Source: an uncultured Candidatus Saccharibacteria bacterium
GTDB lineage: Bacteria > Patescibacteriota > Minisyncoccia > Phycocordibacterales > JACOZG01
Direction: 5' to 3'
Length of the DNA stretch: 64,000 nucleotides
Assembly: GCA_964651115.1 (NCBI GenBank)
Contig: CAZYXJ010000001.1
Coordinates: 213,077 to 277,076 of the forward strand
The notes below the pieces were generated by a model. That model made no database searches, was not told where the DNA came from, and was given only the letters and a program-made list of their open reading frames with translations. Of the stretch, positions 16,891-63,069 are shown one piece after another. Position 1 is the stretch's first letter. Each line of letters opens with the position of its first letter. The position numbers and the translations under genes were made by a program.

Positions 16891-16903
16891 AAAATTGTAA
16901 ATT

Positions 16904-18370: not shown

Positions 18371-18387
18371 GTCTAAAGTGTACATAA

Positions 18388-18412
18388 CCTGTGTATAAAA
18401 TACAAACACAGG
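18388..18412. promoter_or_regulatory. Inverted repeat upstream of the HTH-Panacea operon (candidate operator)
   Basis: CCTGTGT-N11-ACACAGG, 18-42 nt upstream of the ATG at 18370. Confidence 0.3.
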
Positions 18413-42152: not shown

Positions 42153-42169
42153 TTATAGGTTCTAAATTT

Positions 42170-43117: not shown

Positions 43118-43498
43118 TTATTTCTCCTCCGGCGAGAGATCCAGGCAGACGGAATTAAGGCAGTAGCGCCGACCCGTAGCTGTGGGGCCGTCATCAAAAA
43201 CGTGCCCGAGATGAGAACCACACTGCGCGCAAACAACTTCGGTCCTTTCTAAACCATGAGAACGATCAGAAACTTCCTTGACTGAACCAGGCATCGCCTG
43301 ATCAAAAGACGGCCAGCCAGTACCAGAGTCGAATTTGGCCTCGGAGTTAAACAGTTGGTTGCCGCAAACTTTGCAATTGTAAGTGCCCGTCCGCTCCTCG
43401 TGGAGCAGCTGGCCAGAAAAAGGCGGCTCCGTCCCCTTCTCCCTCAACACGCGATACTCCTCGGGAGTTAAACGTTTTTTGATTTCTTGTTCGTCCAT
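43118..43498 (-). CDS. msrB: Peptide-methionine (R)-S-oxide reductase
   Basis: CxxC...CxxC zinc site (CKVCGNQLF, CAQCGSHLGHVFDDGP) and RYCLNS catalytic Cys. Confidence 0.92.
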   Translation of the reverse strand: MDEQEIKKRLTPEEYRVLREKGTEPPFSGQLLHEERTGTYNCKVCGNQLFNSEAKFDSGTGWPSFDQAMPGSVKEVSDRSHGLERTEVVCAQCGSHLGHVFDDGPTATGRRYCLNSVCLDLSPEEK

Positions 43499-43552
43499 AA
43501 ATTTTCCATTGATTAATTATAGCACTGCCTACCCCTGCCGCCGCTCAGAGAA
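43439..43552. repeat. Repeat copies Y1 (43439-43499) and X1 (43499-43552)
   Basis: Y1 is 61/61 identical to 61436-61496. X1 is about 90% identical to 62032-62086, with one indel. Confidence 0.9.
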
Positions 43553-43566
43553 GCTGCAAATTAGTG

Positions 43567-44301
43567 CTAAACTTTGCCTAAGAAAACTTTTTCCAAAACA
43601 CCACTGGCAATGAGCGTAGTCGGCTGCCCCTCGGCGACCAGTAAGCCCTTATCAAGCACGTAGGCTCGGTCAGTAATTTCTAAAAGTGATTTAAGATTGT
43701 GCTCAACTACCACCACGGCGATCTGGCGTTTCTGATTAATCTCTTTAATCGTGGCAAAAATTTCCTTCACGATCTTGGGAGCAAGTCCTAGTGATGGCTC
43801 ATCGAGAAGCAGAACCTTAGGGTCGGTGACCAAGCCGCGAGCGATCGCGAGCATTTGCTGCTGGCCCCCAGAGAGCGTCCCCGATTTGGCTTTGAGTTTG
43901 GTTTTAAGCGCCGGTAAAAGGTCGAGAACTTCCGCAATCTTCTCTCTAACTAGTTTTTTGTTCTTAATCACGATCCCGCCTAATTCCAAATTTTCCTGCA
44001 CCGTCAGATGACGGAAAACCCGGCGGCCCTGCGGTACAAAAGTGATCCCCCGCAACACCATCTCGTGCGAGACTGGGGTAACCGACTCTTCGTGCCAGTA
44101 GACTTTGCCCCGCTCGATAGGCGCCAGGCCAAAGAGGGCCTTTAGAACCGTCGACTTCCCCGCCCCGTTGGGCCCCATCAAGGCCACCACCTCACCCTCA
44201 TCAATTGCTAGCGAAACACCGTCAAGCGCCTTCACGCCACCATAGTGGACATGGAGATCCTCTAGTTTTAGCAATTTTTCTGTAGCAACAGCCGTGGGCA
44301 T
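43567..44301 (-). CDS. livF: Branched-chain-amino-acid-type ABC transporter ATP-binding protein (LivF-like)
   Basis: Walker A GPNGAGKST, signature LSGGQQQML, Walker B LLLDEPS. Confidence 0.82.
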   Translation of the reverse strand: MPTAVATEKLLKLEDLHVHYGGVKALDGVSLAIDEGEVVALMGPNGAGKSTVLKALFGLAPIERGKVYWHEESVTPVSHEMVLRGITFVPQGRRVFRHLTVQENLELGGIVIKNKKLVREKIAEVLDLLPALKTKLKAKSGTLSGGQQQMLAIARGLVTDPKVLLLDEPSLGLAPKIVKEIFATIKEINQKRQIAVVVVEHNLKSLLEITDRAYVLDKGLLVAEGQPTTLIASGVLEKVFLGKV

Positions 44302-44307
44302 GGTTTA

Positions 44308-45327
44308 TTAATTACCAGTTAAGATCGTTGGCTGGCCACCTTTAATTTGCTTCATGATAATCGGGCGGGTGTAGATGCCGCTAGCGTTAAACTTGGCGCC
44401 TGAGAGAAGATTACTTTTGACACAGCTGTAATCACCCTTACACTCCGTAACAGCTTGGACCAAAACCTCGGTTGCTTGTTTGGAGAGTCCAAAAACCGCC
44501 CCCTCGCTACCCTCCAAATCGCCAGGGAACGAATAAATCACATCGGGTACTAACTCACGCACGGCCGGTAATTCCGCTACGTAAGTTGTATAGACCGGCA
44601 CCATCACTTTAAGTTGGCGGAGCTTGGGTACGCCGCTGCCAAAGAAGAAGGAGATATCAGGTGAGTAGATAGCGTCAACGCCAGCTTTGCTAATCTTTAA
44701 TACCTCCGGCGAGAGATCAACAGTCTCGTCGGTTAAAACAACGTCTTGAGCGATTGTGCCCTTAAAGTTTTTACGGAAGCTGTCGGCGTGAGTCTGAGAG
44801 AAGGCGTTTTTAAAGCTCACCAGCGCCACCTTGCGATGACCACGAGCAAACATTTGCTCAGCCACAAACTTCGACTCCTCTTGGAGAGAATACTGGATAT
44901 TGAAGAAGTTGTTGCCGCTAGCCGCATACAAATCTGAGGAAGCGGCGGCTGGTACAATGGACAGAACCTCCTTACCCTTTAAAAGCGGCACAACCGCCTC
45001 TTGAGGCGAGCCGCAGGCGGGACCAATGATGTATTTAGCTTTATCAAACTCCGCTAATTTTTGATAAGCAGTTACCGCCACCTTTGGGTCACATTGATCA
45101 TCCTCAAAAATCAAACTAACAGCCGTCGTACTCCCAACACCAGCCTGCACACCTCGGCGGACCTCCTCACCATAATCAGCCAGTGGACCAGTAAGCGGCG
45201 CGATTACTCCTATTTTGACAGGTTCGCTTGTGCCCACAGGGCCATCTTTTTTAACCGCCACGCCAATACCCCACACCACCAGAATAATGACAATGATCGC
45301 GATTATAATTTTTGCTGTGTTGGACAT
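44308..45327 (-). CDS. Type I periplasmic-binding-fold substrate-binding protein (LivJ/K-like), anchored - paralogue 1
   Basis: N-terminal uncleaved TM anchor with no lipobox Cys. VKIGVIAPLTGPLADYG pattern. Confidence 0.78.
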   Translation of the reverse strand: MSNTAKIIIAIIVIILVVWGIGVAVKKDGPVGTSEPVKIGVIAPLTGPLADYGEEVRRGVQAGVGSTTAVSLIFEDDQCDPKVAVTAYQKLAEFDKAKYIIGPACGSPQEAVVPLLKGKEVLSIVPAAASSDLYAASGNNFFNIQYSLQEESKFVAEQMFARGHRKVALVSFKNAFSQTHADSFRKNFKGTIAQDVVLTDETVDLSPEVLKISKAGVDAIYSPDISFFFGSGVPKLRQLKVMVPVYTTYVAELPAVRELVPDVIYSFPGDLEGSEGAVFGLSKQATEVLVQAVTECKGDYSCVKSNLLSGAKFNASGIYTRPIIMKQIKGGQPTILTGN

Positions 45328-45337
45328 GGTGTTTTTG

Positions 45338-46081
45338 CTATTCTCCTAAATATGCCTCAATTACTTCTGGCTTTTTTAAAACTTCTTCTGGTAAACCTTG
45401 GGCCAAGAGCTGGCCGGCGTCCATCACGATTAAGTGATCACACAACTCGCGGATTAAATCCATGTTGTGCTCGACTAAAATAATAGTTTTACCTGCCGCC
45501 CGGAGCTCTTTAATTACGCTCACCACTGTTTTAATCATCTCAGGAAAGAGTCCGGCAAATGGTTCATCAAGAAAAATGATGGAGGCCGCGTTGTCACTAG
45601 CCGAGACCATCGCGAGCACGCGCGCGATCTCCAAGAGCTTGCGCTGACCATAAGAGAGATTAGCGGCTAACTCCCCGCGCTTCTCCCACAGACCAACTTT
45701 TTTAAGGGCCGCCTCAGCCTGAGCCACATGAAAATCTTTGTGCTTCTCAAACAGTGAGGCAAAAGTGTTCCGCTCTGTTAGGACCACCAAGATGTTATCG
45801 AGCACCGGCATTTGCTCAAAGAGTCGTACGTCTTGGAAGGTGCGGGTTACGCCGTACTCGGCTGACTCATAAGCGCGCAAGCGCGAGAGCTCAACGCCAG
45901 AAATTACGATCGCCCCCGCCTCAAACGGGAACATGCCAGTGAGAGTATTGATAAGAGTCGATTTGCCCGAGCCGTTGGGACCGATCACGCCAGTGATCTT
46001 GCCGGCAGCAAATTCAACCGAGAGCCGGTCTACCGCCTTAACCCCGTCAAATTGTTTGGAGAGACCGTGGGTTTTAAGCAT
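45338..46081 (-). CDS. livG: ABC transporter ATP-binding protein (LivG-like)
   Basis: Walker A GPNGSGKST, signature LSYGQRKLLE, Walker B IFLDEPFAG. Confidence 0.82.
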   Translation of the reverse strand: MLKTHGLSKQFDGVKAVDRLSVEFAAGKITGVIGPNGSGKSTLINTLTGMFPFEAGAIVISGVELSRLRAYESAEYGVTRTFQDVRLFEQMPVLDNILVVLTERNTFASLFEKHKDFHVAQAEAALKKVGLWEKRGELAANLSYGQRKLLEIARVLAMVSASDNAASIIFLDEPFAGLFPEMIKTVVSVIKELRAAGKTIILVEHNMDLIRELCDHLIVMDAGQLLAQGLPEEVLKKPEVIEAYLGE

Positions 46082-46120
46082 CGTAGCCTAATTAAATAGG
46101 ATGTTGCCCCGACCGTCAAA

Positions 46121-46846
46121 TTACCGTTTTGGTCTAATTGAATAGCAAACCCAGGTGTAACCCAGGGCATTATTGTAGCGCCTGCCGACAACCTCACAAC
46201 CACAATCGCTAACTAAGTTCTCCAGCACCACAAAATCAGCATTGGGATCTTTAGTATTTGCGCTTTGCAGGTTAGAGTGAGTTAAGAGTATGTAGCCGCC
46301 TGGATTAATATGGTCTCTGGCCTCCTCAAATAGTCTTCGGTGCAGGACCATCCCCGGATCATAGAGCGCTGCGGTGATGCTTGTTTTTTCTGTGGGGACA
46401 GCGTTCGTAATGGGCAGATTAGCAATTATCCGATCATATTTTTTATTCCCCATTGCTGAGAAGAGATCACTTACGAATACCGATATTGTGTCTTCTAGAC
46501 CATTTAGTTGAACATTATGTTTGCTGCAAGCTACCGCCTCCGGAATAAGATCCACAGCATCAACGTGTTTGGCCCCTTTAATAACTGCCGCAATTGATTC
46601 GACACCAGTACCGCAACCGATGTCAGCAACATCCAAACCGCTCAAATCACCAAGAGCTTCATATAATGTGCGAGAGGACACGGAGTGATCAGCGGCCGGC
46701 GGAAAAATGCCAGGGAAGACATCGATTAAGATAATTTTGCCATCGATTTCGACATTCACCCGATAAGTTCCTTGGGCTTTCTTGCGCTCCAGTTCTTTGA
46801 CCATTCCCTGGGTCTGCGGGGAATCAGCTTGTGGTTTGATTTCCAT
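46121..46846 (-). CDS. SAM-dependent methyltransferase (MTS / HemK-RsmC-like small domain)
   Basis: Motif I VADIGCGTGVESI. Degenerate motif IV IIANLPIT. Confidence 0.72.
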   Translation of the reverse strand: MEIKPQADSPQTQGMVKELERKKAQGTYRVNVEIDGKIILIDVFPGIFPPAADHSVSSRTLYEALGDLSGLDVADIGCGTGVESIAAVIKGAKHVDAVDLIPEAVACSKHNVQLNGLEDTISVFVSDLFSAMGNKKYDRIIANLPITNAVPTEKTSITAALYDPGMVLHRRLFEEARDHINPGGYILLTHSNLQSANTKDPNADFVVLENLVSDCGCEVVGRRYNNALGYTWVCYSIRPKR

Positions 46847-48006
46847 TACTCAGCCTTCACGAATTTACCCTCACGAACAGTCTTCATTTCAAAGGCTTCG
46901 ACTGGAGTCTCAACAAAACCCTTGTCATCAAACTCAATGAGAGGAATAGATACACTGCCCTCAAACCTCACCTTCTCTAAACCTGATCGAACATTCTCTC
47001 GATTAATTTCTTGGCCAGACTCAACAAGGCCCTTCATCACCTCCGCCAGAACCAAAACTGCGTTGTAAGAGGTAACAGCCGATGGCGACAATGGCTTTAG
47101 ATTAAATCTAGCTTCGTACGCCTTCTCAAACTGATCATAACCATGAGACTGGCTTGGCGTTGCAAAATATAGACGGTTTTGCATCAGCTCTGGGCATTCG
47201 CTCAAAGCTTTTGGCGTTCCGGCAGACTCGGTGGAGAGAAGAGGTAAAGGCGCTCCAAGTTCCTTAGACTGAGCCAAAAAGACACATTCCAACTCGGCAA
47301 AAGCGCCAAAGAAGGCGTCTGGGGATTTGGCCTTAGCCTTGCTAATCAAAGTTCGATAATCAGTAACGGCATAGTCCGTACCCATTTCTTTAGCCACCAC
47401 AGTAATACCAAATTCTGGCGCATTTTTTTCAACCAAGTTAGCAGTAAAAAGCCAGAAGCTAAAGTTTGCTGGCTGGACAATGGCAATCTTTTTCCAGCCC
47501 TTATTTTGAGCAAACTTGAGTAATTCTCTAATCCCCACTTCGTTCTTGGGCCAAGTAACAAAGAAATAAGGTGAGTTAACTTTAGACTCAATGTAGGTTG
47601 AGACATTGGGGCTCACCACTGGAGTTTTGTCAGCTGAAGAGATGGCAGCCACTACCTCGCCGTTACCGTCCCACTGAGGACCAACAATAGCGACTACATT
47701 ATCAACTGCAATTAACTTCTTGGCCGCTGCCGCTCCGCGTTTAAGATCAAGACCAGGAGCGTCTTCTGAAACCATTTCTATTTTCTTGCCACCCACCCCA
47801 CCTTGAGCATTTACTTCTTCCACCGCTAGCAGAGCCCCGTTCTTTTCCTCTGCACCAATTTCAGCGCCTAAGCCAGATTGCCCAGACATCTGCCCGATCT
47901 TGATAACCTCCGCCGAGACTGAATTAGGATTTTTGCTCTTGCTCGCCCAAACTCCCAGCCCCACCACCACCAGAATTATGACGATCCAAATTATTGTTTT
48001 TTTCAT
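46846..48006 (-). CDS. LivJ/K-like substrate-binding protein, anchored - paralogue 2
   Basis: MKKTIIWIVIILVVVGLGVW anchor. IKIGQMSGQSGLGAEIG...AVEEVNAQGG. Confidence 0.78.
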   Translation of the reverse strand: MKKTIIWIVIILVVVGLGVWASKSKNPNSVSAEVIKIGQMSGQSGLGAEIGAEEKNGALLAVEEVNAQGGVGGKKIEMVSEDAPGLDLKRGAAAAKKLIAVDNVVAIVGPQWDGNGEVVAAISSADKTPVVSPNVSTYIESKVNSPYFFVTWPKNEVGIRELLKFAQNKGWKKIAIVQPANFSFWLFTANLVEKNAPEFGITVVAKEMGTDYAVTDYRTLISKAKAKSPDAFFGAFAELECVFLAQSKELGAPLPLLSTESAGTPKALSECPELMQNRLYFATPSQSHGYDQFEKAYEARFNLKPLSPSAVTSYNAVLVLAEVMKGLVESGQEINRENVRSGLEKVRFEGSVSIPLIEFDDKGFVETPVEAFEMKTVREGKFVKAE

Positions 48007-48009
48007 AGT

Positions 48010-48732
48010 TTATTTAATTCCCACAACAACAGCTTCCATCATTTTGCGATAAACCGTTTCCACACCCTTAAAACCAATCGAAGTCATAAACGTTTTTGCC
48101 TCCCCTTCAAAAAACACCAGATCTTCTTGTTCGTCACGTTCCATGTGTGCAAGCCACTCTTTTTTGTAATCCGACCGACCAATGGTGTCGTAAATGTCAT
48201 ATTTGGCAATTTGTTCTCTATAAATCTCTTGTCGCTTTTCTGGATCATCATGGGCATACTTATCACCATTAACAAAAATGCCACCCGGCTTTAAGACCCT
48301 GAAGATTTCTGAAATTATCTGTCGACGAAAGTTTTGTTCAAAATTATGGATCACGAAACCAGAAGCTACGGCATCAAATGATGAGTCTGGTATATTCTTC
48401 AAATATTCTCCGACCTCACTTTCAATTACCGTCACCCGATTGGAAGCTTGCCAACGATTAAGATTATCCTGGATTTGATCAATCATTTTTTTCTCATTAT
48501 CAACAGCCACAACGCGTACACGAGAATCTGAGTCAAGTAGAAACTTGGTAGTAATCCCGGTCCCACATCCGACCTCCATAGTTACAATACTCCCCACCTG
48601 AGAATCCTTGAAGTGCTCGCGGATAGCTTGCCCAACCGCCTGCTGAAGTTCATCATAGTGCGGGTAAGCCAACTTCAAAAGCTCATACTCTTCGCCCAGG
48701 ATATTATTAAATCTTTGATCGTTAGAAGTCAT
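48010..48732 (-). CDS. Class I SAM-dependent methyltransferase
   Basis: Motif I MEVGCGTGITT, plus LKPGGIFV. Confidence 0.78.
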   Translation of the reverse strand: MTSNDQRFNNILGEEYELLKLAYPHYDELQQAVGQAIREHFKDSQVGSIVTMEVGCGTGITTKFLLDSDSRVRVVAVDNEKKMIDQIQDNLNRWQASNRVTVIESEVGEYLKNIPDSSFDAVASGFVIHNFEQNFRRQIISEIFRVLKPGGIFVNGDKYAHDDPEKRQEIYREQIAKYDIYDTIGRSDYKKEWLAHMERDEQEDLVFFEGEAKTFMTSIGFKGVETVYRKMMEAVVVGIK

Positions 48733-48737
48733 TTTAT

Positions 48738-49847
48738 TTATTTCAGAGGAATAATTCTATTTTTCTCAACTTTAAAGAACAGCACTGGTTTATGAGCATT
48801 GCCGTCATCATCAAAAGTCATCGTGCCAGATGCGCCAACAAACTCTTTAATATTACTGAGAGATTTAGCAACTAGCTCTGGATCAGTCGACCCGACATCG
48901 CTGATCGCCTTGATGTATAGGTTAAATGCATCATAAGCCTGATTAGCCGGAAAACCAACCTCTCGCTGATATTTAGATTGGAATTTTTTATTAAACGCAC
49001 TATCAACTGTATCAGTAGAAACAAAGATCGTTCCTTCCAAAGAACCTTGGGCTTGATCGATCGTAGGCTGAAACAACAATACAGAGAAAAATGGGATCGT
49101 CATCCCTAAATCTCGCAGCCGCTGGGCAGAAACGGCCGTTTGTCCATAATTAGTAAAAACAACGGCCTCTGGATTAGACGTTTTTATCTTCGTTGCTTCG
49201 GTTCGCAAATCTTTGTTGTCGACGGTAGGCAGTTGAATTGAGACTACGGCTCCACCAAGCTCTTCAAATTTTTTCTTTACAAAATTAGCCTGGTCCATCT
49301 CCCACTCTTGCTGAGAGCCAAATATAGCAATCTTTCGAAATCCTCTTTGCTTATAGAGATACTCGGCCAAGGTAAAACTATCAAATTTGTTAGGCGGAAA
49401 AACATCAAAAGTTCTTGGACTCATTTCAGCAAATTTTTCTGACCCGACTGACGGAGAAATAATTACTACGTTTGCCTTTTCTGCTACAGGAGCCAACACC
49501 GTCGCTGTGGGAGTGAAATCCGGACCAATTATCAAACGCACATCACGATTTATTAGGTTATAAAGCGCCGATAATCCACCTTTGGGATTATCGCCAAGAT
49601 TATCCTCATAAACCATTTCAACCGGTCGGCCCAATACGCCTCCAGCTTGATTAACTTCTCCAACAGCCAGATCAATACCTCGTTTGGCATTCTCACCGGT
49701 ATCAGCAAAGTTACCGGTTAAATTGAGGATTGCGCCAATCTTAATTGGGCCATCAGTATTATTTGACATCTGCCCATCACGATAAAACCACGCCCCCAAC
49801 CCAACCAGCACTAGAATTATGACAACCCAAATAACGATTTTTTTCAT
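48738..49847 (-). CDS. LivJ/K-like substrate-binding protein, anchored - paralogue 3
   Basis: MKKIVIWVVIILVLVGLGAW anchor. IKIGAILNLTGNFADTGENAKRGIDLAVGEVNQAGG. Confidence 0.8.
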   Translation of the reverse strand: MKKIVIWVVIILVLVGLGAWFYRDGQMSNNTDGPIKIGAILNLTGNFADTGENAKRGIDLAVGEVNQAGGVLGRPVEMVYEDNLGDNPKGGLSALYNLINRDVRLIIGPDFTPTATVLAPVAEKANVVIISPSVGSEKFAEMSPRTFDVFPPNKFDSFTLAEYLYKQRGFRKIAIFGSQQEWEMDQANFVKKKFEELGGAVVSIQLPTVDNKDLRTEATKIKTSNPEAVVFTNYGQTAVSAQRLRDLGMTIPFFSVLLFQPTIDQAQGSLEGTIFVSTDTVDSAFNKKFQSKYQREVGFPANQAYDAFNLYIKAISDVGSTDPELVAKSLSNIKEFVGASGTMTFDDDGNAHKPVLFFKVEKNRIIPLK

Positions 49848-49850
49848 ATT

Positions 49851-50930: not shown

Positions 50931-50935
50931 ATTGG

Positions 50936-52057: not shown

Positions 52058-52123
52058 GACTCTAGTCTAGCAAGCTCGGGTGAACTGTAAAGCAAAAGTT
52101 GACTATACTGGTTTTATTGCCCG

Positions 52124-53239: not shown

Positions 53240-53343
53240 AATAGCATTATACAGATGAGCTATTTTATTGTATATAGATGAGGCTCGGTTGGACCGTTTC
53301 TCAAAAATATGCTTATTTATAGCGCTGGAACGGTTTTTATAAT

Positions 53344-53372
53344 TTGACTAAAAATTAGTCACAAGCTATACT
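53344..53372 (+). promoter_or_regulatory. Promoter with embedded perfect palindrome (candidate TrmB-like autoregulatory operator)
   Basis: TTGACT (53344-53349), N17, TATACT (53367-53372). TGACTAA-AAA-TTAGTCA inverted repeat at 53345-53361. Confidence 0.45.
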
Positions 53373-53378
53373 CAGCTG

Positions 53379-54203: not shown

Positions 54204-54212
54204 TCTGGGGAT

Positions 54213-55091: not shown

Positions 55092-55093
55092 GG

Positions 55094-55972
55094 CTACTTT
55101 TTAAATAGACCCTGCGGGCGAAATAAAAGAAACAGAAGCAGGAGCACGAAGGCGATCGCATCCTTCCACTCCCCGGCCAACTTCCAAATCCCAAAATTTT
55201 CTACAAAGCCCAAAATAAAAGCCCCGATGATCCCACCCCAAATATTACCGGCGCCACCAATAATCGCCGCGATCACTCCTTTTAGGAGGAGTGATAACCC
55301 CATCGTTGGCTCGATACCGGTATCAAAGCCGATCATGATCCCCGCCAACCCAGCAATGGCCGAGCCGAGAAAGAAAACGGTGGCAATCACATTGCTGGTA
55401 TTGATCCCCACGATTTTAGAAACCTCTTCATCATCGCCCACGGCCCGGATGGCTTTACCGATCGCCGTGTATTTAAGAAAGAGTCCCAGCAGCACGCCGA
55501 TCACCAGGACCAGGGCCACAATAATAAGCTGGACCTGAGTGATTACGCCGCCGGCAATCTCGTAGACCTGACCGCTGCCGGCGGCGCGACTTAGGGTCTG
55601 GAACTGACTAGTAAAGAGCATGGCGATAATCGCCTGGAGCATGGTAAAGGCACCCAGGGAGGCAACTAGCAAAACCATGTTGGAAGCTTTGCGCTTCCGA
55701 AGCGGTCGATAAACTAGATAGTTAATCAAAAGCCCGATCAAACCAGCCACCAAGACGCCCAAAACCACCGCCCACCATAAGTCGCCACCAAGTTTTTTAT
55801 AAAAAAAGAAAACGGTATAACCACCCACTGCCGTGAGAGCACCATAACCAAGATCAAAAAACTTGACCGTACCAAAGATTAAATTAAAACCGAGCGCCAA
55901 GAGAGCATAGATGGCGCCAGCAATAATGCTATTAGCAACAAGTTGTGGCAAGATATCCATATATATTTTCAA
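55094..55972 (-). CDS. livH: Branched-chain-type ABC transporter permease (LivH-like)
   Basis: LVANSIIAGAIYALLALGFNLIFG is the typical LivH N-terminus. Confidence 0.82.
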   Translation of the reverse strand: MKIYMDILPQLVANSIIAGAIYALLALGFNLIFGTVKFFDLGYGALTAVGGYTVFFFYKKLGGDLWWAVVLGVLVAGLIGLLINYLVYRPLRKRKASNMVLLVASLGAFTMLQAIIAMLFTSQFQTLSRAAGSGQVYEIAGGVITQVQLIIVALVLVIGVLLGLFLKYTAIGKAIRAVGDDEEVSKIVGINTSNVIATVFFLGSAIAGLAGIMIGFDTGIEPTMGLSLLLKGVIAAIIGGAGNIWGGIIGAFILGFVENFGIWKLAGEWKDAIAFVLLLLFLLFRPQGLFKK

Positions 55973-56028
55973 CCAAACTATAACAGCAACCTGAGCTGAC
56001 TACAAATCAGGTCCGGAATAAAACAAGC

Positions 56029-57135
56029 CTACTCTGCCATTCTCACAAACTTACCATCCTGGATAGATTTAAAGTAAAACTCTCTTTGAATGGTGTTCTG
56101 GTCAAAAGACATGACCCCACTTACTCCTTGGTAATTATTTAGTTGTAAAATGTAATCTCTGACACAAGACGAATTATTTTTGCCACAACTCTCAAGGGCA
56201 TCAATCAATATTTTGTATATATCGTAAGCATTGTAAGCCGCCACTTGAGGCCGTCCGCTGGTTACCTTTTGAAATTCGCTGATAAACTTTTGCTGAGCAC
56301 TAGTAAGAGAGCTCTCGTTAATTGGGAAAGTGTAAACCAATCCCTCCAAGCTACTACCTCCAGCCGCCACCAAATCAGACGCCTCTGTCGCGTATTGACC
56401 AAACAGAGGTACATCTATTCCTAATTCTCTGGCCTGTTTAGCAATTTGCCCGACTCCAGCCCCATTGTAGACAATATATAGAGCATCCGGGGCGGCCTTT
56501 TTGAGTTTAAGCAGGCTGGTTCGAAAATCCTGCGACCCAACAAGGAAAGGCTCGGCCCCAACCAAAACTCCACCACGTTTTTCTGTTTCCTCTTTGAACG
56601 ATCGGTAATGAAGGAGACCAAAATCATTGTTCATATAGATAATGGCCGGTTTTTGTTTTTTAAGTTTGGTGACAATTAATTCCGCCAACACTCGTGCCTC
56701 ACTGTCTGCTTCATGGGAGCCCTTGATCACATATCCCTCGATCTTATTGGCCGCACCCCAGGGTGTGAAGGCGACGATTTGGTTTTGGCTGGCTAGAGGT
56801 TTTACCGCTTCTATTCCGGAACTATTTAGCGGACCCACAATGGCGTCGACACCATCTACCGTCACTAATTTATTGAAGGCTGATACCGCTTTTTCTGAAG
56901 TAAATCCATCATCTTCGTAGACAAGTTCAACCTTTTCGCCATAATCTTTATTGGCGATCTCCAAGGCTGCCCTGATATCCTCTCCTACCTTAGCCTGAGC
57001 CCCCGTTAAAGGAATAACCACACCAATCTTAATCGGCTCGCCCCTCACCGGGCTCGCCTCGTCTCTCCTGCTCGCCCACACTCCTAACCCCATCACTACC
57101 AGAATTATGACGATCCAAATTATTACCTTTTTCAT
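56029..57135 (-). CDS. LivJ/K-like substrate-binding protein, anchored - paralogue 7
   Basis: MKKVIIWIVIILVVMGLGVW anchor. IKIGVVIPLTGAQAKVGEDI. Confidence 0.78.
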   Translation of the reverse strand: MKKVIIWIVIILVVMGLGVWASRRDEASPVRGEPIKIGVVIPLTGAQAKVGEDIRAALEIANKDYGEKVELVYEDDGFTSEKAVSAFNKLVTVDGVDAIVGPLNSSGIEAVKPLASQNQIVAFTPWGAANKIEGYVIKGSHEADSEARVLAELIVTKLKKQKPAIIYMNNDFGLLHYRSFKEETEKRGGVLVGAEPFLVGSQDFRTSLLKLKKAAPDALYIVYNGAGVGQIAKQARELGIDVPLFGQYATEASDLVAAGGSSLEGLVYTFPINESSLTSAQQKFISEFQKVTSGRPQVAAYNAYDIYKILIDALESCGKNNSSCVRDYILQLNNYQGVSGVMSFDQNTIQREFYFKSIQDGKFVRMAE

Positions 57136-57137
57136 AT

Positions 57138-57893
57138 CTAATTATTTAATATAAGCTCGTGCATGTAAATCATCCCTCTTTGGAGGTTGTTGATTGAATT
57201 GTGTAACCAGGTCGTTTGTACCTCATAACCAAGCTTTTCCCCAACAATTCTGGGATCAGTTAAGTCACCACCCAAACTGTAGGAAGGAATCGCAATCACA
57301 CCCTGAGGGTTAAGGTGCTCTTTCGCTTCAACCAGAAATCTCTCAAACAGCTCGGGCAGCATGAGCATGCTGGCAGAAATGGTATCACCTTCTGGAGACT
57401 TACCAGCAAAAAACGGGATCATCCAAGTTATTAGATCCGCTTTTTCGTCGATCTTTTCAAATAAGTCACCCTGGACGACAGAAGCAATCGCCTCAACATT
57501 AAATCTTTTTATATTCTCCTGCGTATTTTCCACAGCCGGAAGGGAAACATCAGACATAACGACTTTCTTGGCTCCATACTTGGCCATTATTACTCCCATT
57601 AGCCCAGTACCTGATCCTATTTCAATTGCAGTTTTATTAAAAAAGAGAGCATTGTGATAAAAAAGATAACGAGCGTGATAACGACCCGAAGCAATTAGAG
57701 GATTCCACACCCCCTTTTTGATCAGAAAGTTTTTCAGAGTGTCGTCCTCCCCGCTTACGTCGTAGTTTACTTCAAAATCTTCGTGTTGGTGTTTTTCCCA
57801 TTGGGTCAAAACCAGATTTCTCTGGTCTTGATTTAGCATCTTTAAGTTATCCTCTTGGAGAGTCGCTTCCCGCTTATCCATATGCCTTTTCAA
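57138..57893 (-). CDS. SAM-dependent methyltransferase (same MTS-like family as 46121-46846)
   Basis: Motif I AIEIGSGTGLMGV, with architecture shared with 46121-46846. Confidence 0.7.
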   Translation of the reverse strand: MKRHMDKREATLQEDNLKMLNQDQRNLVLTQWEKHQHEDFEVNYDVSGEDDTLKNFLIKKGVWNPLIASGRYHARYLFYHNALFFNKTAIEIGSGTGLMGVIMAKYGAKKVVMSDVSLPAVENTQENIKRFNVEAIASVVQGDLFEKIDEKADLITWMIPFFAGKSPEGDTISASMLMLPELFERFLVEAKEHLNPQGVIAIPSYSLGGDLTDPRIVGEKLGYEVQTTWLHNSINNLQRGMIYMHELILNN

Positions 57894-57932
57894 CCAAACT
57901 ATACCTTATTCCTTGTATTGTTTCCAACGGTA

Positions 57933-59054
57933 TTAACGTAGTGATTTATAGCCGCCAGGTATACCATCTTTAGACAACACGATCTGCCACAGTTGGATAC
58001 TGCGAGCCCGAAAAGCTCCCGCACAGGCTAGCAAATAATAACGCCACATCCGTCGGAAGCGCTCAGAGTAATTTTGCTTGATCTGATCCCAACTGCGCTC
58101 AAAGTTTTGCTGCCAGGCCATTAGAGTCTTATCGTAATCAGAACCAAAATTGTGCCAATCTTCCATCACAAACAGGCCCTCAATCCCTCGGGCCATTTGG
58201 GCGACACTTGGCAAAACACCGTTAGGAAAAATGTACTTATCGATCCAAGGATCCGTTACCCTTGAGCCCACACTTTTACCGATCGTGTGGAGCAAAAAGA
58301 GTCCGCCATCTTTTAAGCAACGGCGGGCCACCTCAAAATAGCTGCGATAATTTTTATCACCCACATGCTCAAACATCCCCAACGACACAATCGCATCAAA
58401 CTGGCCGGTTAGATCACGATAGTCTTGCAATAAAATCTCGACCGGCAAACCCTGACACAACTCCATCCCAAGAGCCACCTGCTCCTTAGAAACAGTGACA
58501 CCAGTAACCCGCACCCCGTAACGCTCGGCCGCAAACTTGGCAAAGCTGCCCCAACCACAACCAATATCCAAAACGTGCATCCCGGGTTTAAGATTAAGCT
58601 TTTGGCAAACCAAATCTAATTTGGCCTCCTGCGCCTCATCGAGTGAGTTCGCCTGGCGCCAATAAGCACAAGTGTAGACCAAGCGTCGATCCAACATTTG
58701 GCGGTAAAGATCGTTGCCGGCATCGTAATGCTCCTCGCCCACCATAAAAGCCCGAGACTTTGATTGGCGGTTAAAAAGAGTGTTTATTAGATAAGAAAGG
58801 GCGAGTTGCCAACCCCCTCGAACTTGCTGGTGGAGTTTGGCGCGAAATATTTTATCGAAAAATTGATCCAGCTCCTGGGCGTCCCACCAACCATCCATAT
58901 AACTCTCTCCTAAAGCCAAGGAACCGCCGGCCAAAACCCGAGCGTAAAAACGTTCATCGTGGATCTGGATATCCCCCGGCGCGGCACCATTAATGGTAAC
59001 GCCAGCCTTGGCAAGCAGGTCAGTAATCAGCCGTTTAGCGGTTATAGTTGACAT
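57933..59054 (-). CDS. cfa: Cyclopropane-fatty-acyl-phospholipid synthase family methyltransferase
   Basis: YDAGNDLY, VLDIGCGWGSFA, GMFEHVG and YLLACAGAFR motifs of the CFA/mycolic-acid synthase family. Confidence 0.85.
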   Translation of the reverse strand: MSTITAKRLITDLLAKAGVTINGAAPGDIQIHDERFYARVLAGGSLALGESYMDGWWDAQELDQFFDKIFRAKLHQQVRGGWQLALSYLINTLFNRQSKSRAFMVGEEHYDAGNDLYRQMLDRRLVYTCAYWRQANSLDEAQEAKLDLVCQKLNLKPGMHVLDIGCGWGSFAKFAAERYGVRVTGVTVSKEQVALGMELCQGLPVEILLQDYRDLTGQFDAIVSLGMFEHVGDKNYRSYFEVARRCLKDGGLFLLHTIGKSVGSRVTDPWIDKYIFPNGVLPSVAQMARGIEGLFVMEDWHNFGSDYDKTLMAWQQNFERSWDQIKQNYSERFRRMWRYYLLACAGAFRARSIQLWQIVLSKDGIPGGYKSLR

Positions 59055-59133
59055 CGTTTTAAACTATCATGAAGTTTTTCCAAACGCCAACCACCCGCCT
59101 CTCGGCGGGTGGTTGGGAATAAACCTTAATTTT

Positions 59134-60252
59134 TTACTGACTGATCGTCACCGGCTTGCCGTCTTTAATCATGCGCACTACGGCCTTAGAATTTACAACG
59201 CCATTATCATCTATTGTTAGGTCCTTACCAAGAGCACCATCAAACTTAGGAATATCGGCGATTGCATCACGGATCTCACTTCTGCTGGGCTTAACTTCTC
59301 CGTTGCCCGCAGACTCTGTGGCCATAACAATCAGGTTAAGAACATCGTAGGCGTTAGCAGCGCCAAACTTTGGTCCTTGGTCATAGCGTTTAGTATATAA
59401 GTCAACAAACCATTGAGTTGGATCAGCGCCATTGACGTACCACATCCCCTCAAACAGTGACAACTGATCAGAAAACTCAAAAGCTTCCATCGTTGTTACC
59501 GGTGTCGTGATTCCGGCCTCACGCATTTGTTTGGCAAGAATTTCCAATTCGGGCGTGGTTGCCTCAAGAACATAGATGTCGGCACCCGAGATTTTAAAAC
59601 CCTTATCGATAAGGGTTTTAAAATCTCGGGTGCCAGTGTTAAACTTCTGAGTCGAAAGCACTTGGATATTAGTATTTTTTATATCCTTCTCGAAGCTGTT
59701 AATGATTGCTGCTACCCCTTGGTTATCTTGCTGCGCAAAAAAGACAAGCTTTTTTATGCCTCTTTTTTGTAACTCTTGAATAAAGAGCCGCGAATCCTCA
59801 TACGGTGGTGTGTAGTGAACAAAGTTATACTCACCGTCAGCCACCTGAGAAGCCGAAGCAAAGTCATTAATATGAGGCACTCCATTTTTCTCGGCAATCG
59901 GACTAATCACACTGCCCACCGGCGACCCAAAAGATACCAAAACGTCTGCCTTATCAATGGCGATAAGCTTGTTCGCCACGGTCGCACCCAGAGCTGGCTT
60001 AAACTGATCGTCTTCAAAGATAAGTTTGTAGTTATATTTGAGATTTTTTGGCAATCCCTCCTGTGCCAAGGTAATTGCGTTTTTGGCACTTTGGCCAAGC
60101 ATGGCTACGTCTCCGGTCAACGGCAAACTAACGCCAACGATAACTGTTGGTCTCATCGCCTCTGGGACTTGAGAATCTTGCCTGGTCAAAACCAGGCCTA
60201 TCAGGACGATGATGACAAGACCAATAATGGTCCAAATTATTTTTTTATTCAT
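59134..60252 (-). CDS. LivJ/K-like substrate-binding protein, anchored - paralogue 8
   Basis: TM anchor. VIVGVSLPLTGDVAMLGQSAKNAITLA. Confidence 0.78.
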   Translation of the reverse strand: MNKKIIWTIIGLVIIVLIGLVLTRQDSQVPEAMRPTVIVGVSLPLTGDVAMLGQSAKNAITLAQEGLPKNLKYNYKLIFEDDQFKPALGATVANKLIAIDKADVLVSFGSPVGSVISPIAEKNGVPHINDFASASQVADGEYNFVHYTPPYEDSRLFIQELQKRGIKKLVFFAQQDNQGVAAIINSFEKDIKNTNIQVLSTQKFNTGTRDFKTLIDKGFKISGADIYVLEATTPELEILAKQMREAGITTPVTTMEAFEFSDQLSLFEGMWYVNGADPTQWFVDLYTKRYDQGPKFGAANAYDVLNLIVMATESAGNGEVKPSRSEIRDAIADIPKFDGALGKDLTIDDNGVVNSKAVVRMIKDGKPVTISQ

Positions 60253-60421
60253 ATATGATTATAAATATATCTTATATCCACTCAAGCATAAACTAGATTT
60301 TTCTCTTGTCATTAATAATTATCTAATTGCCACAGGAAATATGGCCTTAACTAAAGGTTTTTTAACTTATTAATTTTTTTGTTCGTTAAAAGTGACAAAT
60401 GTTTAAATACGTGTTAGAGTT

Positions 60422-61222
60422 ATGGTTATGATAAATAGCCAAGTAACTAACCAGTTAAAGGACACTGGTCTAAGCGAGAAAGCAGCCTTAGTTTATACCA
60501 CCTTACTTAAACTTGGTGGGGCCTACCCTTCTAGCCTCGCAGCCGCCACCAAGCTTAACCGTAGTACCGTTTATAAACTTCTCCTAGATCTATCAATAAA
60601 AGGATTGGTCACCGAGGTTGAACGAGGCAAAAAACTTTACTACCAAGCTGAAAAACCTGAAAAATTACTTAGGTTTGCAAAAAATCAAGCCGATTTAGCC
60701 AAAGGGGCTTACGACCAGATTCGACAACTAATACCAGAGCTCGAAACGATTTTTGCTTCCAATCCCAACAAACCGGTAATCCGCTACTTCCAAGACAAGG
60801 CCGGCATTGCTTCTATCTACGAAGAAATGGTATCTGAAAAAAAATATGAAATGGTCTCTTTTTCCCACGGAGAAGCTTTTAAGAATTACCTGCCCACTGC
60901 GGCACTAAGGAAATTTGTGCGCGCAAAAGAGCGCAATGGCATCACCACCCGAGCGATTGCTCCAGACACGGAGGAAAACCGAAAATATACCACTGCCGTT
61001 TTTGAGGGTATCAAGAAAGACTTCTGGCTAGAGATCCGTTATGTTCCTAACGAATTTTTTCCTTTCGAGGCGGAAATTACGCTTTATGGAAACTCGAAGC
61101 TGGCGCTAACAAAACTGCGCGGCGACAAGTTAATCGGTGTTGTTATCGACGAAAAATTGATTCATGACATGTTCAAAATGATTTTTGAACTAGTCTGGCG
61201 CTCAGATCAAGTTAAGAAATAA
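60422..61222 (+). CDS. TrmB-family transcriptional regulator
   Basis: LKDTGLSEKAALVYTTLLKLGGAYPSSLAAATKLNRSTVYKLLLDLSIKGLV plus a C-terminal TrmB-like domain. Divergent from an SBP operon. Confidence 0.78.
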   Translation: MVMINSQVTNQLKDTGLSEKAALVYTTLLKLGGAYPSSLAAATKLNRSTVYKLLLDLSIKGLVTEVERGKKLYYQAEKPEKLLRFAKNQADLAKGAYDQIRQLIPELETIFASNPNKPVIRYFQDKAGIASIYEEMVSEKKYEMVSFSHGEAFKNYLPTAALRKFVRAKERNGITTRAIAPDTEENRKYTTAVFEGIKKDFWLEIRYVPNEFFPFEAEITLYGNSKLALTKLRGDKLIGVVIDEKLIHDMFKMIFELVWRSDQVKK

Positions 61223-61306
61223 CCGCCCATGCGGAGACTTCAGAAACAAAGTTCTGGGAATCACCAGAGATGCCAAGATTCGGCCAGACAAACTCGACGC
61301 TAGAGG

Positions 61307-61495
61307 TTATATGAAATACTTTCTTGAGAAAGGAGCAACTCGAGGGAAACAAAAACTGATACAGTAGTTTATAAGTCGATTATTACTTATCAATAAAAGA
61401 GTCACAGTCGCCGGTAATGCTCTGGAGAGTTTTCGCTCCCTCAACACGCGATACTCCTCGGGAGTTAAACGTTTTTTGATTTCTTGTTCGTCCAT
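61307..61495 (-). pseudogene. msrB: msrB 5' remnant (first 20 codons) fused to unrelated sequence
   Basis: MDEQEIKKRLTPEEYRVLRE is identical to the start of msrB at 43498. DNA identity ends abruptly at 61436. Confidence 0.75.
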
Positions 61496-61496
61496 A
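61436..61496. repeat. Repeat copy Y2
   Basis: 61/61 identical to 43439-43499. Confidence 0.9.
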
Positions 61497-61505
61497 GTGA
61501 ATAAA

Positions 61506-62042
61506 TTATTTTAGCAAAGCGGCAAAACGCGCCTGCAACTTTTCTAACTTAGGCGCGATCACGAGCCGACAATAATCCTGGTCGGAATGACGCTCGTAAT
61601 ACTCCCGATGATAATCCTCCGCTTCGTAGAATTGCTGAAGCGGAACGACCTCGGTGACGACCGGGTCAGGAAAAGCATTGGCCCGGTTAAGCTCCTGGAC
61701 TAACGTCGCCGCCTCGGACTGCTCCGTCGCGTTGCCGTAAAAAATGGCAGAGCGGTACTGCGAACCCACATCATTGCCCTGGCGATTAAGCGTTGTGGGA
61801 TCGTGAGTGTTAAAAAAGACAGCTAACAGGTCGGCGTAAGAGATCACCGCGGGATCATAACTAATCTTGATCGCCTCAGCGTGGCCAGTCTCGCCCGTGC
61901 TTACCTCGTCGTAGGTTGGATTTTCAGTCGTACCGCCAGCATAGCCCGGCACCACCGACCGCACACCATTGAGCCGCCGAAAAACCGCTTCTGTGCACCA
62001 AAAACAGCCATTAGCAAAAACCGCCGTTGCCAAATTTTCCAT
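61506..62042 (-). CDS. msrA: Peptide-methionine (S)-S-oxide reductase
   Basis: GCFWCTE active site. Start placed at ATG 62042. Confidence 0.92.
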   Translation of the reverse strand: MENLATAVFANGCFWCTEAVFRRLNGVRSVVPGYAGGTTENPTYDEVSTGETGHAEAIKISYDPAVISYADLLAVFFNTHDPTTLNRQGNDVGSQYRSAIFYGNATEQSEAATLVQELNRANAFPDPVVTEVVPLQQFYEAEDYHREYYERHSDQDYCRLVIAPKLEKLQARFAALLK

Positions 62043-62086
62043 CAAATTAATTATAACACTGGCTACCCCTGCCGCCGCTCAGAGAA
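62032..62086. repeat. Repeat copy X2 (msrA promoter region, first 11 nt of msrA, last 8 codons of the upstream gene)
   Basis: About 90% identical to 43499-43552. Contains TATAAT on the minus strand. Confidence 0.88.
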
Positions 62087-62545: not shown

Positions 62546-62714
62546 GGCCCAACTATACTCTAATCCCGAAATACTACAAACGGAACTATGCGAAGTATCT
62601 ACTGACCGAAGGATCGATGTTTGAAAAGGGAGATCTGCTTAGTAATCTCAGAAGTAAAATTCGTGTTCGTAATAAGCTAGTCGAATCAAGTTCTGGCTGA
62701 AAACCTGTTACACT

Positions 62715-63055: not shown

Positions 63056-63069
63056 CTCTGCGATATATC

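Follow-up and report, generated by a model that had tools for sequence, protein, structure and literature searches.

The msrA-msrB locus lies in a 64,000-nucleotide stretch of DNA (the window) and reads along the minus strand as mem-X2-msrA-Y2, a 17,883-bp block, and X1-Y1-msrB, where X and Y are direct repeats (Table 1). Both msr genes are intact, msrA matching Pfam PMSR (6.7e-65) and msrB matching Pfam SelR (9e-50, profile positions 1-115/116). Comparison of 43439-43552 with 61436-62086 bore out the repeats and gene order described in a previous sequence-only reading, with corrections of detail. The two Y copies are indeed identical at 61 of 61 positions and are the sole exact repeat of their length in the whole 64-kb window, but Y comprises one nucleotide before the ATG plus 60 nt (20 codons), not the first 61 nt of msrB. 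X has a 41-nt core of 95% identity and, with one indel, reaches the lengths of 54 and 55 nt already given for X1 and X2; the substitutions number four, not two. That undercount had also hidden their clustering, as all five differences fall within the 20 nt separating the mem stop codon from the msrA ATG (the promoter core). X1 and X2 do not differ in the 24 nt taken from the end of mem or in the 11 nt taken from the start of msrA (35/35 positions outside the promoter core), and X and Y together are identical at 96 of 96 positions outside it. X1 runs directly into Y1, the two overlapping by a single T at 43499, and the resulting 115-bp X1-Y1 patch stands between one end of the block and the msrB body. 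Microhomology at the novel joints is 0–1 nt. The 62-aa pseudo-ORF reported at 61307-61495 is present in the ORF listing.

Table 1 Features of the msrA-msrB locus, in window coordinates.
Feature	Position	Strand	Description
msrB	43118..43498	-	Intact, 126 aa
Y1	43439..43499	-	Y copy continuing into full-length msrB
uORF	43468..43509	-	13 codons, MENLWTNKKSKNV*; out of frame with msrB
X1	43499..43552	-	54 nt; derived X copy, without mem body upstream
Inserted block	43553..61435	.	17,883 bp; content from Pfam scans
livF-type ABC ATPase	43567..44301	-	Last block gene; stop codon 14 nt from X1
TrmB-like regulator	60422..61222	+	Directly upstream of LSR remnant a
LSR remnant a	61236..61409	+	Pseudogene of last ~58 LSR codons, in-frame stop
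Y2	61436..61496	-	1 nt + first 60 nt of msrB; truncated copy, 9 nt past msrA stop
msrA	61506..62042	-	Intact, 178 aa
X2	62032..62086	-	55 nt: 24 nt mem 3′ end, 20-nt promoter core, 11 nt msrA start
mem	62063..62545	-	160-aa membrane protein gene; last 7 codons and stop form 5′ part of X2
LSR remnant b	62581..62682	+	Last ~34 codons; profile i-Evalue 8.3e-9
LSR remnant c	63042..63503	+	Residues ~288-438, zinc ribbon and C-terminal tail

The direction of copying can be read from mem. No Pfam family matches it and none of its family members occurs in the 169 fetched loci, yet it has 90 homologues, mostly of 130–166 aa, the best of which (54% identical, 166 aa) ends at the equivalent position. The family is thus real and mem has its full length, which identifies X2 as the source and X1 as derived from it, as had been proposed. 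X carries TGNTATAAT 6–7 nt before an ATG, a leaderless-type promoter layout, in the form TGTTATAAT at 62050-62058 in X2, 7 nt ahead of the msrA ATG, and TGCTATAAT at 43516-43524 in X1. The motif occurs seven times against 1.4 expected, with a gene ATG 6–9 nt downstream in five of the seven cases, and X is therefore a plausible leaderless-type promoter, plausibly of an extended −10 type typical of the genome; a consensus promoter scan made no call at X1 or X2. The earlier reading of a copy of the operon promoter and gene 5′ end on the msrB side is upheld; the patch makes msrB complete again and places this putative promoter before it. The 13-codon uORF claimed earlier is also present; it starts at the msrA-remnant ATG, 6 nt past the −10 box of X1, and transcripts driven from X1 would begin at it.

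L001, L081 and L082, which are the closest relatives, have msrA directly 5′ of msrB without the block, and the two genes adjoin at about 43 Paceibacterota loci. The block is therefore an insertion, and the proposal of a split operon is upheld by this empty site, by the general adjacency and by a recombinase remnant at the block edge (below). The msrB gene is 93–95% identical to those of the three relatives, from which Y1 differs at 3–5 positions per 60 nt and the next 60 nt of msrB at 4–5; since the two divergences match, the patch is native to the lineage, and no boundary of a recombination tract was seen inside msrB in this comparison. The msrA gene, with a core-like GC3 of 0.59, shares only 71% identity with its counterpart adjoining msrB in the relatives (msrB, 93%), and no relative above 74% identity was found among 5.8 billion proteins. 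As the msrA-side flank is moreover rearranged, the operon before insertion is reconstructed, not observed. A second genome with the split structure was not found in the searches.

The block encodes livF, livG, livM and livH, eight Peripla_BP_6 binding proteins, four SAM methyltransferases (one CMAS-type) and two TrmB-like regulators, and ends in LSR (large serine recombinase) remnant a. Its AT-richness, noted earlier, is real (GC 0.455 against 0.521 for 1-43438), as is a lower tetranucleotide correlation with the core (0.55–0.69; core windows, 0.88–0.92), but the bias is uneven, the four liv genes having core-like GC3 values of 0.57–0.58, and the flank at 62087-64000 is still AT-richer (0.404). 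A perfect 54-nt palindrome lies within a block gene at 59581-59634.

The sequence after Y2, formerly taken as unrelated, proved by tblastn, alignment and a profile built from 78 LSR C-termini to be what is left of a recombinase pseudogene. At Y2 the block is bounded by the degraded 3′ terminus of an LSR gene, which stops about 20 nt short of Y2; remnant a starts 14 nt past the TrmB stop codon and matches residues 383-438 of the LSR of contig L083 (tblastn E=1.7e-4; profile i-Evalue 8.6e-8). Two more remnants, likewise overlooked before, lie on the msrA side, which had been treated as native flank and consists instead of recombinase debris: remnant b, separated by 36 nt from the start codon of mem, and remnant c (Pfam Zn_ribbon_recom 2.4e-7; profile i-Evalue 2.5e-65; tblastn 4e-39 against L083; 62% identity to the LSR of contig L088), the 5′ side of which is interrupted by an opposite-strand DUF4238-like fragment. 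Intact LSRs adjoin homologous TrmB-SBP-LivHMGF clusters in those two other Paceibacterota contigs, L083 and L088, with the same order of TrmB then LSR as here. In an intact relative, the homology between two elements with 97%-identical LSRs breaks off no more than 5 nt from the stop codon of the LSR, and the LSR 3′ end therefore marks the edge of a module or element. A Liv cluster or msrB fragment was found beside the LSR at 0 of the other 78 LSR loci in a metagenome scan. Against derivation from an LSR island, no intact recombinase is present, and the LSR has decayed much further than the repeats, which are pristine; the age first suggested, a recent insertion, accordingly holds for the repeats and not obviously for the recombinase.

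The junctions bear on whether the layout is real. The source is a metagenome-assembled genome and the proteins of the window were found on only one NCBI contig, as could be the case if the contig joined strain variants via short repeats so that no single genome had this layout. We consider such an assembly artefact very improbable, because the junctions Y2/LSR remnant, livF+14 nt/X1 and X1/Y1 have no sequence in common through which an assembly graph could be misjoined and must exist in real molecules; furthermore, the repeats are only 54–61 nt long, and the layout agrees throughout with a single recombination product.

The explanation that we favour, with confidence evenly balanced against doubt, is that an LSR-linked island entered a once-contiguous msrA-msrB operon at msrB codon 20/21 and that a patch of the lineage's own sequence restored msrB. 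As cargo the island would have brought methyltransferases and TrmB regulators together with a Liv-type ABC transporter and its enlarged complement of binding proteins; the recombinase end now adjoins the stranded first 20 codons of msrB (Y2). The patch would join the operon promoter region to the first 60 nt of msrB, both taken from this lineage itself, with msrA omitted. The layout equals the product of one reciprocal Y crossover between an intact operon and a 17,997-bp circular island (block, X1 and Y), and the converse Y-by-Y geometry proposed earlier for excising the block is correct. Serine recombinases exchange strands at a 2-bp core (PMC10083194), and since they alone do not make 61-nt direct repeats, a further step is needed. 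The route to the patch that we infer has four steps: the LSR would integrate the island into msrB; aberrant excision, as in specialised transduction, would take the left-flanking X-msrA-Y along; the circle would re-enter the intact operon of a sibling cell by homologous recombination; and the redundant second msrA would be lost by deletion, which would shorten the flanking repeats and stabilise the island. A later deletion of about 1.5 kb may have destroyed the recombinase gene and locked the island in place. Weighing against the explanation, besides the state of the recombinase, are the 78 other LSR loci without a neighbouring Liv cluster or msrB fragment, the failure to find a second genome of this structure, the negative consensus promoter scan and the out-of-frame uORF at which transcripts from X1 would start. 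Counted against the route are its cost of four events, two of them illegitimate, the 0–1 nt of microhomology at the novel joints, and the packing of all five X1/X2 differences into the promoter core, which simple recombination does not predict.

The last point is met by supposing that the patch was built in place, error-prone, template-switching repair or replication at the junction of island and msrB having copied 54 nt of X and then 61 nt of Y after an LSR island disrupted msrB; selection would have kept the rare product with a complete msrB and a promoter, and the island would never have carried the patch. Fewer events are needed, the native patch sequence and the skipped msrA are accounted for, and error-prone synthesis would explain five changes within 20 nt, 12–31 nt from the X1/Y1 joint, beside 96 identical positions; the palindrome in the block shows that mutation of the template-switch type has occurred nearby. 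Nevertheless, we regard this reading as unlikely, though with some weight, given that joint microhomology is only 0–1 nt, synthesis would have had to pass from the end of Y into codon 21 of msrB precisely and in frame, the island-without-patch intermediate is not seen, and the product is indistinguishable from that of a single crossover, the simpler formal operation.

The same five differences could reflect X1 and X2 being different alleles, as they would be if a linear fragment (block-X1-Y-msrB) from a sibling already lacking msrA had recombined at one end only, anchored by homology in msrB and downstream, with the other end joined illegitimately after Y so that Y was duplicated. This yields the observed order and fits the unbroken homology of the msrB side to the relatives from X1 downward. 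It is quite improbable, however, in that the illegitimate end would, by coincidence, have had to land some 20 nt or less from the end of the recombinase gene, exactly at an element edge, and the 35/35 identity outside the promoter core misfits diverged alleles; the origin of block-X1-Y is also merely shifted to another cell. The coincidence of block edge and LSR 3′ end is likewise left unexplained by a recombinase-independent duplicative insertion, in which the remnant would be cargo debris and staggered breaks or a 651-bp X-msrA-Y tandem duplication would give X-msrA-Y, block, X-msrA-Y-msrB, with subsequent deletion of the second msrA. This series of duplication, insertion and deletion was the second option of the sequence-only reading. 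Tandem duplications are common, and both block ends match the ends of the duplicated segment, but an independent duplication followed by insertion exactly at its joint is improbable and no bacterial mechanism is known that duplicates a 651-bp target, making this account highly doubtful.

The favoured island-and-patch explanation is worth comparing with known systems. In Campbell-type insertion-duplication, a single crossover between circle and chromosome leaves the insert between direct repeats of the shared segment, and aberrant excision of the lambda gal/bio kind explains how an element carries host DNA from one flank. The present locus resembles both in these respects, but what is shared here is a deletion derivative of 115 bp, not a contiguous piece of host DNA, and phage functions are absent. 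The prophages e14 and phage 21 in Escherichia coli icd bring a substitute target-gene end, and as here the gene stays intact while a pseudo-end is displaced; there, however, the replacement is at the 3′ end, requires no promoter and involves a tyrosine-type integrase. Among LSR elements, skin in sigK and SPbeta in spsM split genes, similarly lying inside coding sequence and bearing their recombinase gene at the edge; their targets stay broken until excision and long repeats are lacking, whereas here the target is patch-repaired and the recombinase is dead.

Disruption of target genes is general for large serine recombinase elements (PMC10083194), and supply of a target-gene promoter and N-terminus by an element is already known, so that the present island would be a clean case rather than an unprecedented one. 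SXT in prfC and IMEVchUSA3 in dusA insert in the gene 5′ end and supply promoter and N-terminus (PMC8409611); as here, the new promoter and N-terminal coding sequence keep the target expressed, and a repeat of the target 5′ end flanks the element. Those elements are intact and mobile with tyrosine integrases, in contrast to the dead serine recombinase here, and the N-termini that they supply are of unknown origin and diverged (61% identity for dusA), whereas the present one is 61/61 identical to the host copy and its promoter visibly copies that of the same operon, with scraps of two upstream genes attached. SpyCI islands in the mutL 5′ end of Streptococcus pyogenes (PMC3430984, PMC4689407) likewise come between mutS and mutL, the first and second genes of a repair operon, and in strain Manfredo an integrase deletion has locked the island, an island-borne promoter rescuing expression of the downstream gene. 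Unlike the present island, SpyCI is phage-like with a tyrosine-type integrase and cycles in and out as a switch in other strains; a coding 5′ end is not duplicated there in the same way, and its rescuing promoter is a cryptic one within the int pseudogene, not a copy of the operon promoter as here.

The layout in which, along the minus strand, a promoter-region repeat (X2), msrA and a stranded copy of the msrB 5' end (Y2) are separated by a block from a second promoter-region copy (X1) fused to the 5' end of the full msrB gene (Y1) had been put forward in a sequence-only reading and is borne out, with small corrections, by the repeat alignment and the gene coordinates. The two Y copies are identical at 61/61 positions, as had been stated, and are the sole exact repeat of such size within the 64-kb window; they are not the first 61 nt of msrB, as had also been stated, and consist of the 1 base ahead of the msrB ATG followed by msrB codons 1–20. 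Y stands as a direct repeat at both block junctions, matching the start of the target gene's coding sequence, and the complete msrB ORF is rebuilt at the distal junction. X1 and X2 differ in a 54/55-nt alignment by four substitutions and one indel, not by the two substitutions and one indel originally counted, and all five differences fall inside the 20 nt separating the stop codon of mem (a 160-aa membrane-protein gene) from the msrA ATG; beyond this promoter core, 96/96 repeat positions are identical (24 nt of the mem 3' end, 11 nt of the msrA start and 61 nt of Y). At the X1–Y1 fusion, ATGGAAAATTT is joined to ATGGAC with a 1-nt overlap. The 62-aa pseudo-ORF following Y2 and the 13-codon uORF are both present as described. 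No exact match to Y turned up among viral or metagenome contigs and none to X among viral contigs or the fetched loci, and an Rfam search of 42–64 kb found no family.

Features of the split msrA-msrB locus and of its msrA-side flank
Feature	Coordinates	Strand	Remarks
mem	62063-62545	-	first in minus-strand order
X2	62086-62032	-	55 nt, after mem
msrA	62042-61506	-	intact; after X2, followed by a 9-nt spacer
Y2	61496-61436	-	after the 9-nt spacer
Block	61435-43553		17,883 bp, between Y2 and X1
X1	43552-43499	-	upstream of Y1
Y1	43499-43439	-	runs on into the remaining msrB, down to 43118
LSR remnant a	61236-61409	+	last ~58 codons; in-frame stop
LSR remnant b	62581-62682	+	profile i-Evalue 8.3e-9; 36 nt from mem start
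LSR remnant c	63042-63503	+	profile match 63081-63497, i-Evalue 2.5e-65; Pfam Zn_ribbon_recom
DUF4238-like gene fragment	62715-63040	-	cuts one of the two LSR remnants upstream of mem

The Y copies recur at a period of 17,997 bp, and the orientation and order of the parts match a Campbell-type single-crossover insert, in which the block plus one repeat makes up a closed unit. Formally, a single reciprocal crossover at Y that joined a 17,997-bp circle composed of the block, X1 and Y to an intact mem-X-msrA-Y-msrB operon would give this layout; an assembly artefact is a less likely explanation of the same arrangement. Recombination between the Y copies could, to judge from the sequence, reverse the insertion, and an event of the RecA type would be the sole remaining route of excision.

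The main claim of the earlier reading, that an msrA-msrB operon was split by an insertion, holds and is strengthened by an empty site in relatives and by a recombinase remnant. Both genes are intact: msrA matches Pfam PMSR (6.7e-65), and the 126-aa msrB matches SelR (9e-50) over profile positions 1–115/116. All close msrA loci come from Patescibacteria/Paceibacterota assemblies, which places the organism in that group. In about 43 Paceibacterota loci, msrB comes next after msrA, usually with a gap within 40 nt. In the loci of the three closest relatives (L001 and two short contigs, L081 and L082), msrA ends 5 nt ahead of the msrB ATG, representing the empty site, and because msrA adjoins msrB in all three, the block is an insertion when compared with the nearest genomes known. 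Between window positions 43518 and 37021, L001 is 82–88% identical in DNA (msrB protein, 93%; TspO, 91%), the homology ending just upstream of msrB, and msrB of L081 and L082 is 95% and 94% identical, respectively; the sequence upstream of L001 msrA has no counterpart within the window. Despite these values for msrB and TspO, the msrA of the window shares just 71% identity with that of L001 (5707–6246), and its best relative among 5.8 billion proteins reaches at most 74%; the msrA of the window and that of L001 are each about 72–74% identical to the other retrieved homologues, a set picked by similarity to the window msrA. An exchange of the msrA allele in one of the two lineages, with its boundary at the msrA/msrB junction, is indicated by these comparisons. 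The window msrA has a GC3 of 0.59 and a core-like composition. Its -10-to-ATG stretch aligns weakly with that of L001, where a tRNA-Gln lies 18 nt upstream of the msrA promoter; a tRNA-Gln remnant inside X was considered and rejected, as only this stretch aligned, weakly, with a score reached by 9–13 of 500 shuffles.

Ten of the 43 related loci have an msrA-msrB gap of 330–910 nt with small ORFs (L002, L004, L005, L013, L016, L020, L023, L037, L045 and L063), the insert in L023 carrying a GIY-YIG-like ORF, and insertions between the two genes seem to be tolerated throughout the phylum; a duplicated msrB start was found in none of the 43, gapped ones included. Another insertion or deletion near the msr locus is the ~4-kb stretch of L001 (7525–11492), with two minus-strand ORFs (561 and 285 aa) and small ORFs, that separates genes lying side by side in the window (42152–42197).

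The block carries a Liv-type ABC transporter (livF, livG, livM and livH), eight Peripla_BP_6 binding proteins, four SAM methyltransferases (one of the CMAS type) and two TrmB-like regulators. Its GC content is 0.455 versus 0.521 for window positions 1–43438, which confirms the AT-richness ascribed to the block, and its tetranucleotide correlation with the core is 0.55–0.69 versus 0.88–0.92 for core windows. The signature is not uniform: GC3 is core-like in livF, livG, livH and livM (0.57–0.58) and 0.36–0.53 in the binding-protein, methyltransferase and TrmB genes. The composition thus supports a foreign origin for much of the block, though with no clean single signature. The Liv genes are interspersed with modules of TrmB plus binding protein and of methyltransferase plus binding protein; this layout recurs in L086 and L087, whose Liv, TrmB and main binding-protein genes are 62–82% identical to those of the block and some of whose extra binding-protein genes match at 27–29% only, and a compact TrmB-SBP-LivHMGF unit recurs in L083 and L088 (54–83% identity), the four clusters occupying four different genomic contexts. 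The binding-protein genes of the block have conserved 5' ends and upstream sequences in common (repeat families at 47936, 49777, 50887 and 57065). One of them (59134–60252) contains a 54-nt perfect palindrome at 59581–59634, with 27-nt arms and no spacer, which encodes GTRDFKTLIDKGFKISGA and where the alignment with the L086 homologue has a 1-aa gap; the palindrome looks like a putative template-switch (quasipalindrome-correction) scar.

The sequence following Y2, described earlier as unrelated, turns out to be the decayed 3' end of a large serine recombinase (LSR) gene, as shown by tblastn (E=1.7e-4), by alignment and by a profile of 78 LSR C-termini (i-Evalue 8.6e-8). This remnant a starts 14 nt past the stop codon of the TrmB gene (60422–61222) and ends about 20 nt from Y2, placing it at the block edge as expected of a recombinase gene at the edge of an element. 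Intact LSRs of the same family adjoin TrmB-SBP-LivH-LivM-LivG-LivF units in L083 and L088, in which the binding protein is 80% and 83% identical, respectively, to that of the block and the other proteins 54–69%, and in which both the TrmB-then-LSR order and the orientation of LSR to cargo are the same as in the block. L088 and L090 have LSRs of 97% identity, and their DNA ceases to be homologous no more than 5 nt from the stop codon of that gene; the LSR 3' end therefore marks an element or module edge, and it is mainly because the block edge coincides with this end that site-specific insertion at msrB nt 60/61 is proposed. Duplicative insertion independent of any recombinase is a less likely reading of these junctions. 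The recombinase reading has limits of its own: the homologous Liv/SBP/TrmB/methyltransferase cluster of L086 and L087 lies among core genes without an LSR. Serine recombinases exchange at a 2-bp core (PMC10083194) and do not produce direct repeats of 54–61 nt, and the 54-nt and 61-nt direct repeats bracketing the block stand against the repeat-free, 2-bp-core junctions expected of LSR elements; the 115-bp X1–Y1 patch therefore needs a further explanation.

Pfam scans found no intact recombinase or transposase in the block. The window holds no gene with Resolvase, Recombinase and zinc-ribbon domains together, and when the LSR C-terminal profile was run on all six frames, only the three C-terminal remnants matched; a functional integrase is absent beside the attachment site, its place being taken by the ~58-codon remnant with an in-frame stop. 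Since remnants b and c lie on the msrA side, that flank is a graveyard of LSR elements and not a native flank. All three remnants are 3' ends only and lie in the same orientation, two of them upstream of mem, which suggests that related elements inserted and decayed repeatedly at the msr locus. An msrB fragment next to an LSR was found in none of the 80 related LSR loci (msrB lies 3.5–7 kb off in two), so that a habit of this LSR family to target msrB is not supported; the 78 other LSR loci of the metagenome scan have other cargo. Remnants a and c and the L108 LSR each have TCTGGAG after the stop, remnant b has the related TCTGGAA, and the X boundary TTCTCTGAG resembles it; as a shared attachment motif, TCTGGAG may be regarded as suggestive only. 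The 78 sequences downstream of LSR stops are otherwise unrelated, with no general motif, and no convincing dyad-symmetric attachment site was found.

The patch carries a copy of what is a credible msrA promoter. The extended -10 element reads TGTTATAAT in X2 and TGCTATAAT in X1, and TGNTATAAT occurs seven times in the window versus 1.4 times expected (none of 100 shuffles reached seven), always on the minus, gene-rich strand (1411, 2769, 14626, 15633, 36801, 43516 and 62050). Five of the seven copies have a gene ATG 6–9 nt downstream, belonging to an L31-like ribosomal protein start, a GAPDH-like gene, a helicase-like gene, a membrane protein and msrA, and it is this enrichment and spacing from gene starts that make X2 credible; a consensus scan for -35/-10 promoters called nothing at X1 or X2. 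A -10 box 6–9 nt before the ATG is the layout of leaderless transcripts, implying that such transcripts may be widespread in this genome. Transcripts from X1 would then begin at the ATG of the msrA remnant, opening the out-of-frame 13-codon uORF ahead of msrB. The livF stop lies 68 nt upstream of msrB, and read-through from the Liv genes is a candidate alternative source of msrB transcripts.

As to the direction of copying, the mem family has 90 detectable members, mostly of 130–166 aa, with C-termini ending where that of mem does, so that X2 holds the genuine mem end and X1, which lacks the mem body, is the derived copy. The same homologues led us to reject an X-msrA-Y cassette dropped into a longer mem, which would have run on through the 42 in-frame codons after Y2; these codons lie opposite the recombinase remnant. 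In the 169 other loci fetched, mem is absent near msrA and everywhere else; the mem-X-msrA arrangement is specific to the lineage of the window, and X1 was therefore copied from that lineage. Y1 differs from the relatives at 3–5 positions and the next 60 nt of msrB at 4–5, with no shift in divergence at the boundary between Y and the msrB body; the divergence of Y1 being equal to that of the neighboring msrB, the coding part of the patch is native.

For the island and the patch, whose origin we infer, we prefer a history of five steps. An LSR would have placed the island at msrB codon 20/21, creating the junction of Y with the LSR end; an aberrant excision would then have taken the left-flanking X-msrA-Y along, yielding the junction of livF plus 14 nt with X; and homologous re-integration into the intact operon of a sibling cell would have given X-msrA-Y, the island and X-msrA-Y-msrB. 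Deletion of the redundant second msrA would have left the fusion of ATGGAAAATTT to ATGGAC and cut the repeats on either side of the island from 651 nt to 54 + 61 nt, making its loss less easy, and a deletion of ~1.5 kb would finally have taken away the greater part of the LSR gene. The main rival has the patch built in place, by error-prone template-switching repair after a disruptive insertion, and it needs fewer events and would account for the clustering of five changes within the promoter core, but demands an exact in-frame switch with almost no microhomology to rely on. One-ended homologous recombination with sibling DNA is less likely as a source of the patch.

We consider it rather unlikely that X1–Y is the element-borne target-repair arm of a Patescibacteria family of serine-recombinase islands, newborn through capture of host flank DNA. 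If it were, the distal junction would be the original target site and the proximal one the element's own, msrB would never have been inactivated by the insertion, the site would be reusable for serial accretion, the integrase alone could reverse the reaction, and the locus would show how the replacement promoters and N-termini of the SXT/prfC and dusA islands originate.

The msr block resembles the SXT/prfC and dusA integrative elements, which give their target gene a new promoter and 5' end, in its 5'-end repeat, rebuilt target gene and empty site in relatives. SpyCI islands likewise split a repair operon, mutS-mutL, at the 5' end of the second gene; in one such case, with the integrase deleted, the gene downstream is rescued by a promoter that the island carries (PMC3430984). 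The msr locus would work like all of these, except that its recombinase is of the serine type with a dead gene, that the replacement coding end does not differ from the host's, and that the putative replacement promoter is a recognizable copy of the operon promoter still joined to pieces of mem and msrA. An excision-based regulatory switch resembling the active lysogeny of SpyCIM1 requires an intact recombinase, and that of the block is destroyed. Because a functional integrase and, as regards LSR elements, repeat-free junctions are lacking, the locus is assigned to no named family. It is already known that islands can mend the gene into which they insert, the source of their replacement promoter and gene start being unexplained; here the module keeps the fingerprints of its source, namely the last mem codons, the -10 box of the operon and 11 nt from an msrA copy since deleted, and the patch is a rare glimpse of a module of this kind at its origin or close to it. 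To our knowledge, mobile elements of Patescibacteria are poorly described, and this case sits in that phylum, tied to a serine and not a tyrosine recombinase. A small-genome bacterium can thus take an 18-kb transporter island into a stress-repair operon with both repair genes kept; the practical reach is modest, comprising one locus in one genome.

Elsewhere in the window, other AT-rich gene islands lie at 4488–6103, 12707–13590, 16131–18409 and 22692–23507 (GC3 of 0.34–0.50 versus 0.58–0.68 in the core), the tetranucleotide profile of the 16–24 kb region is deviant, and a 120-nt direct repeat, 83% identical, is found at 5908–6027 and 6408–6527, 500 nt apart.
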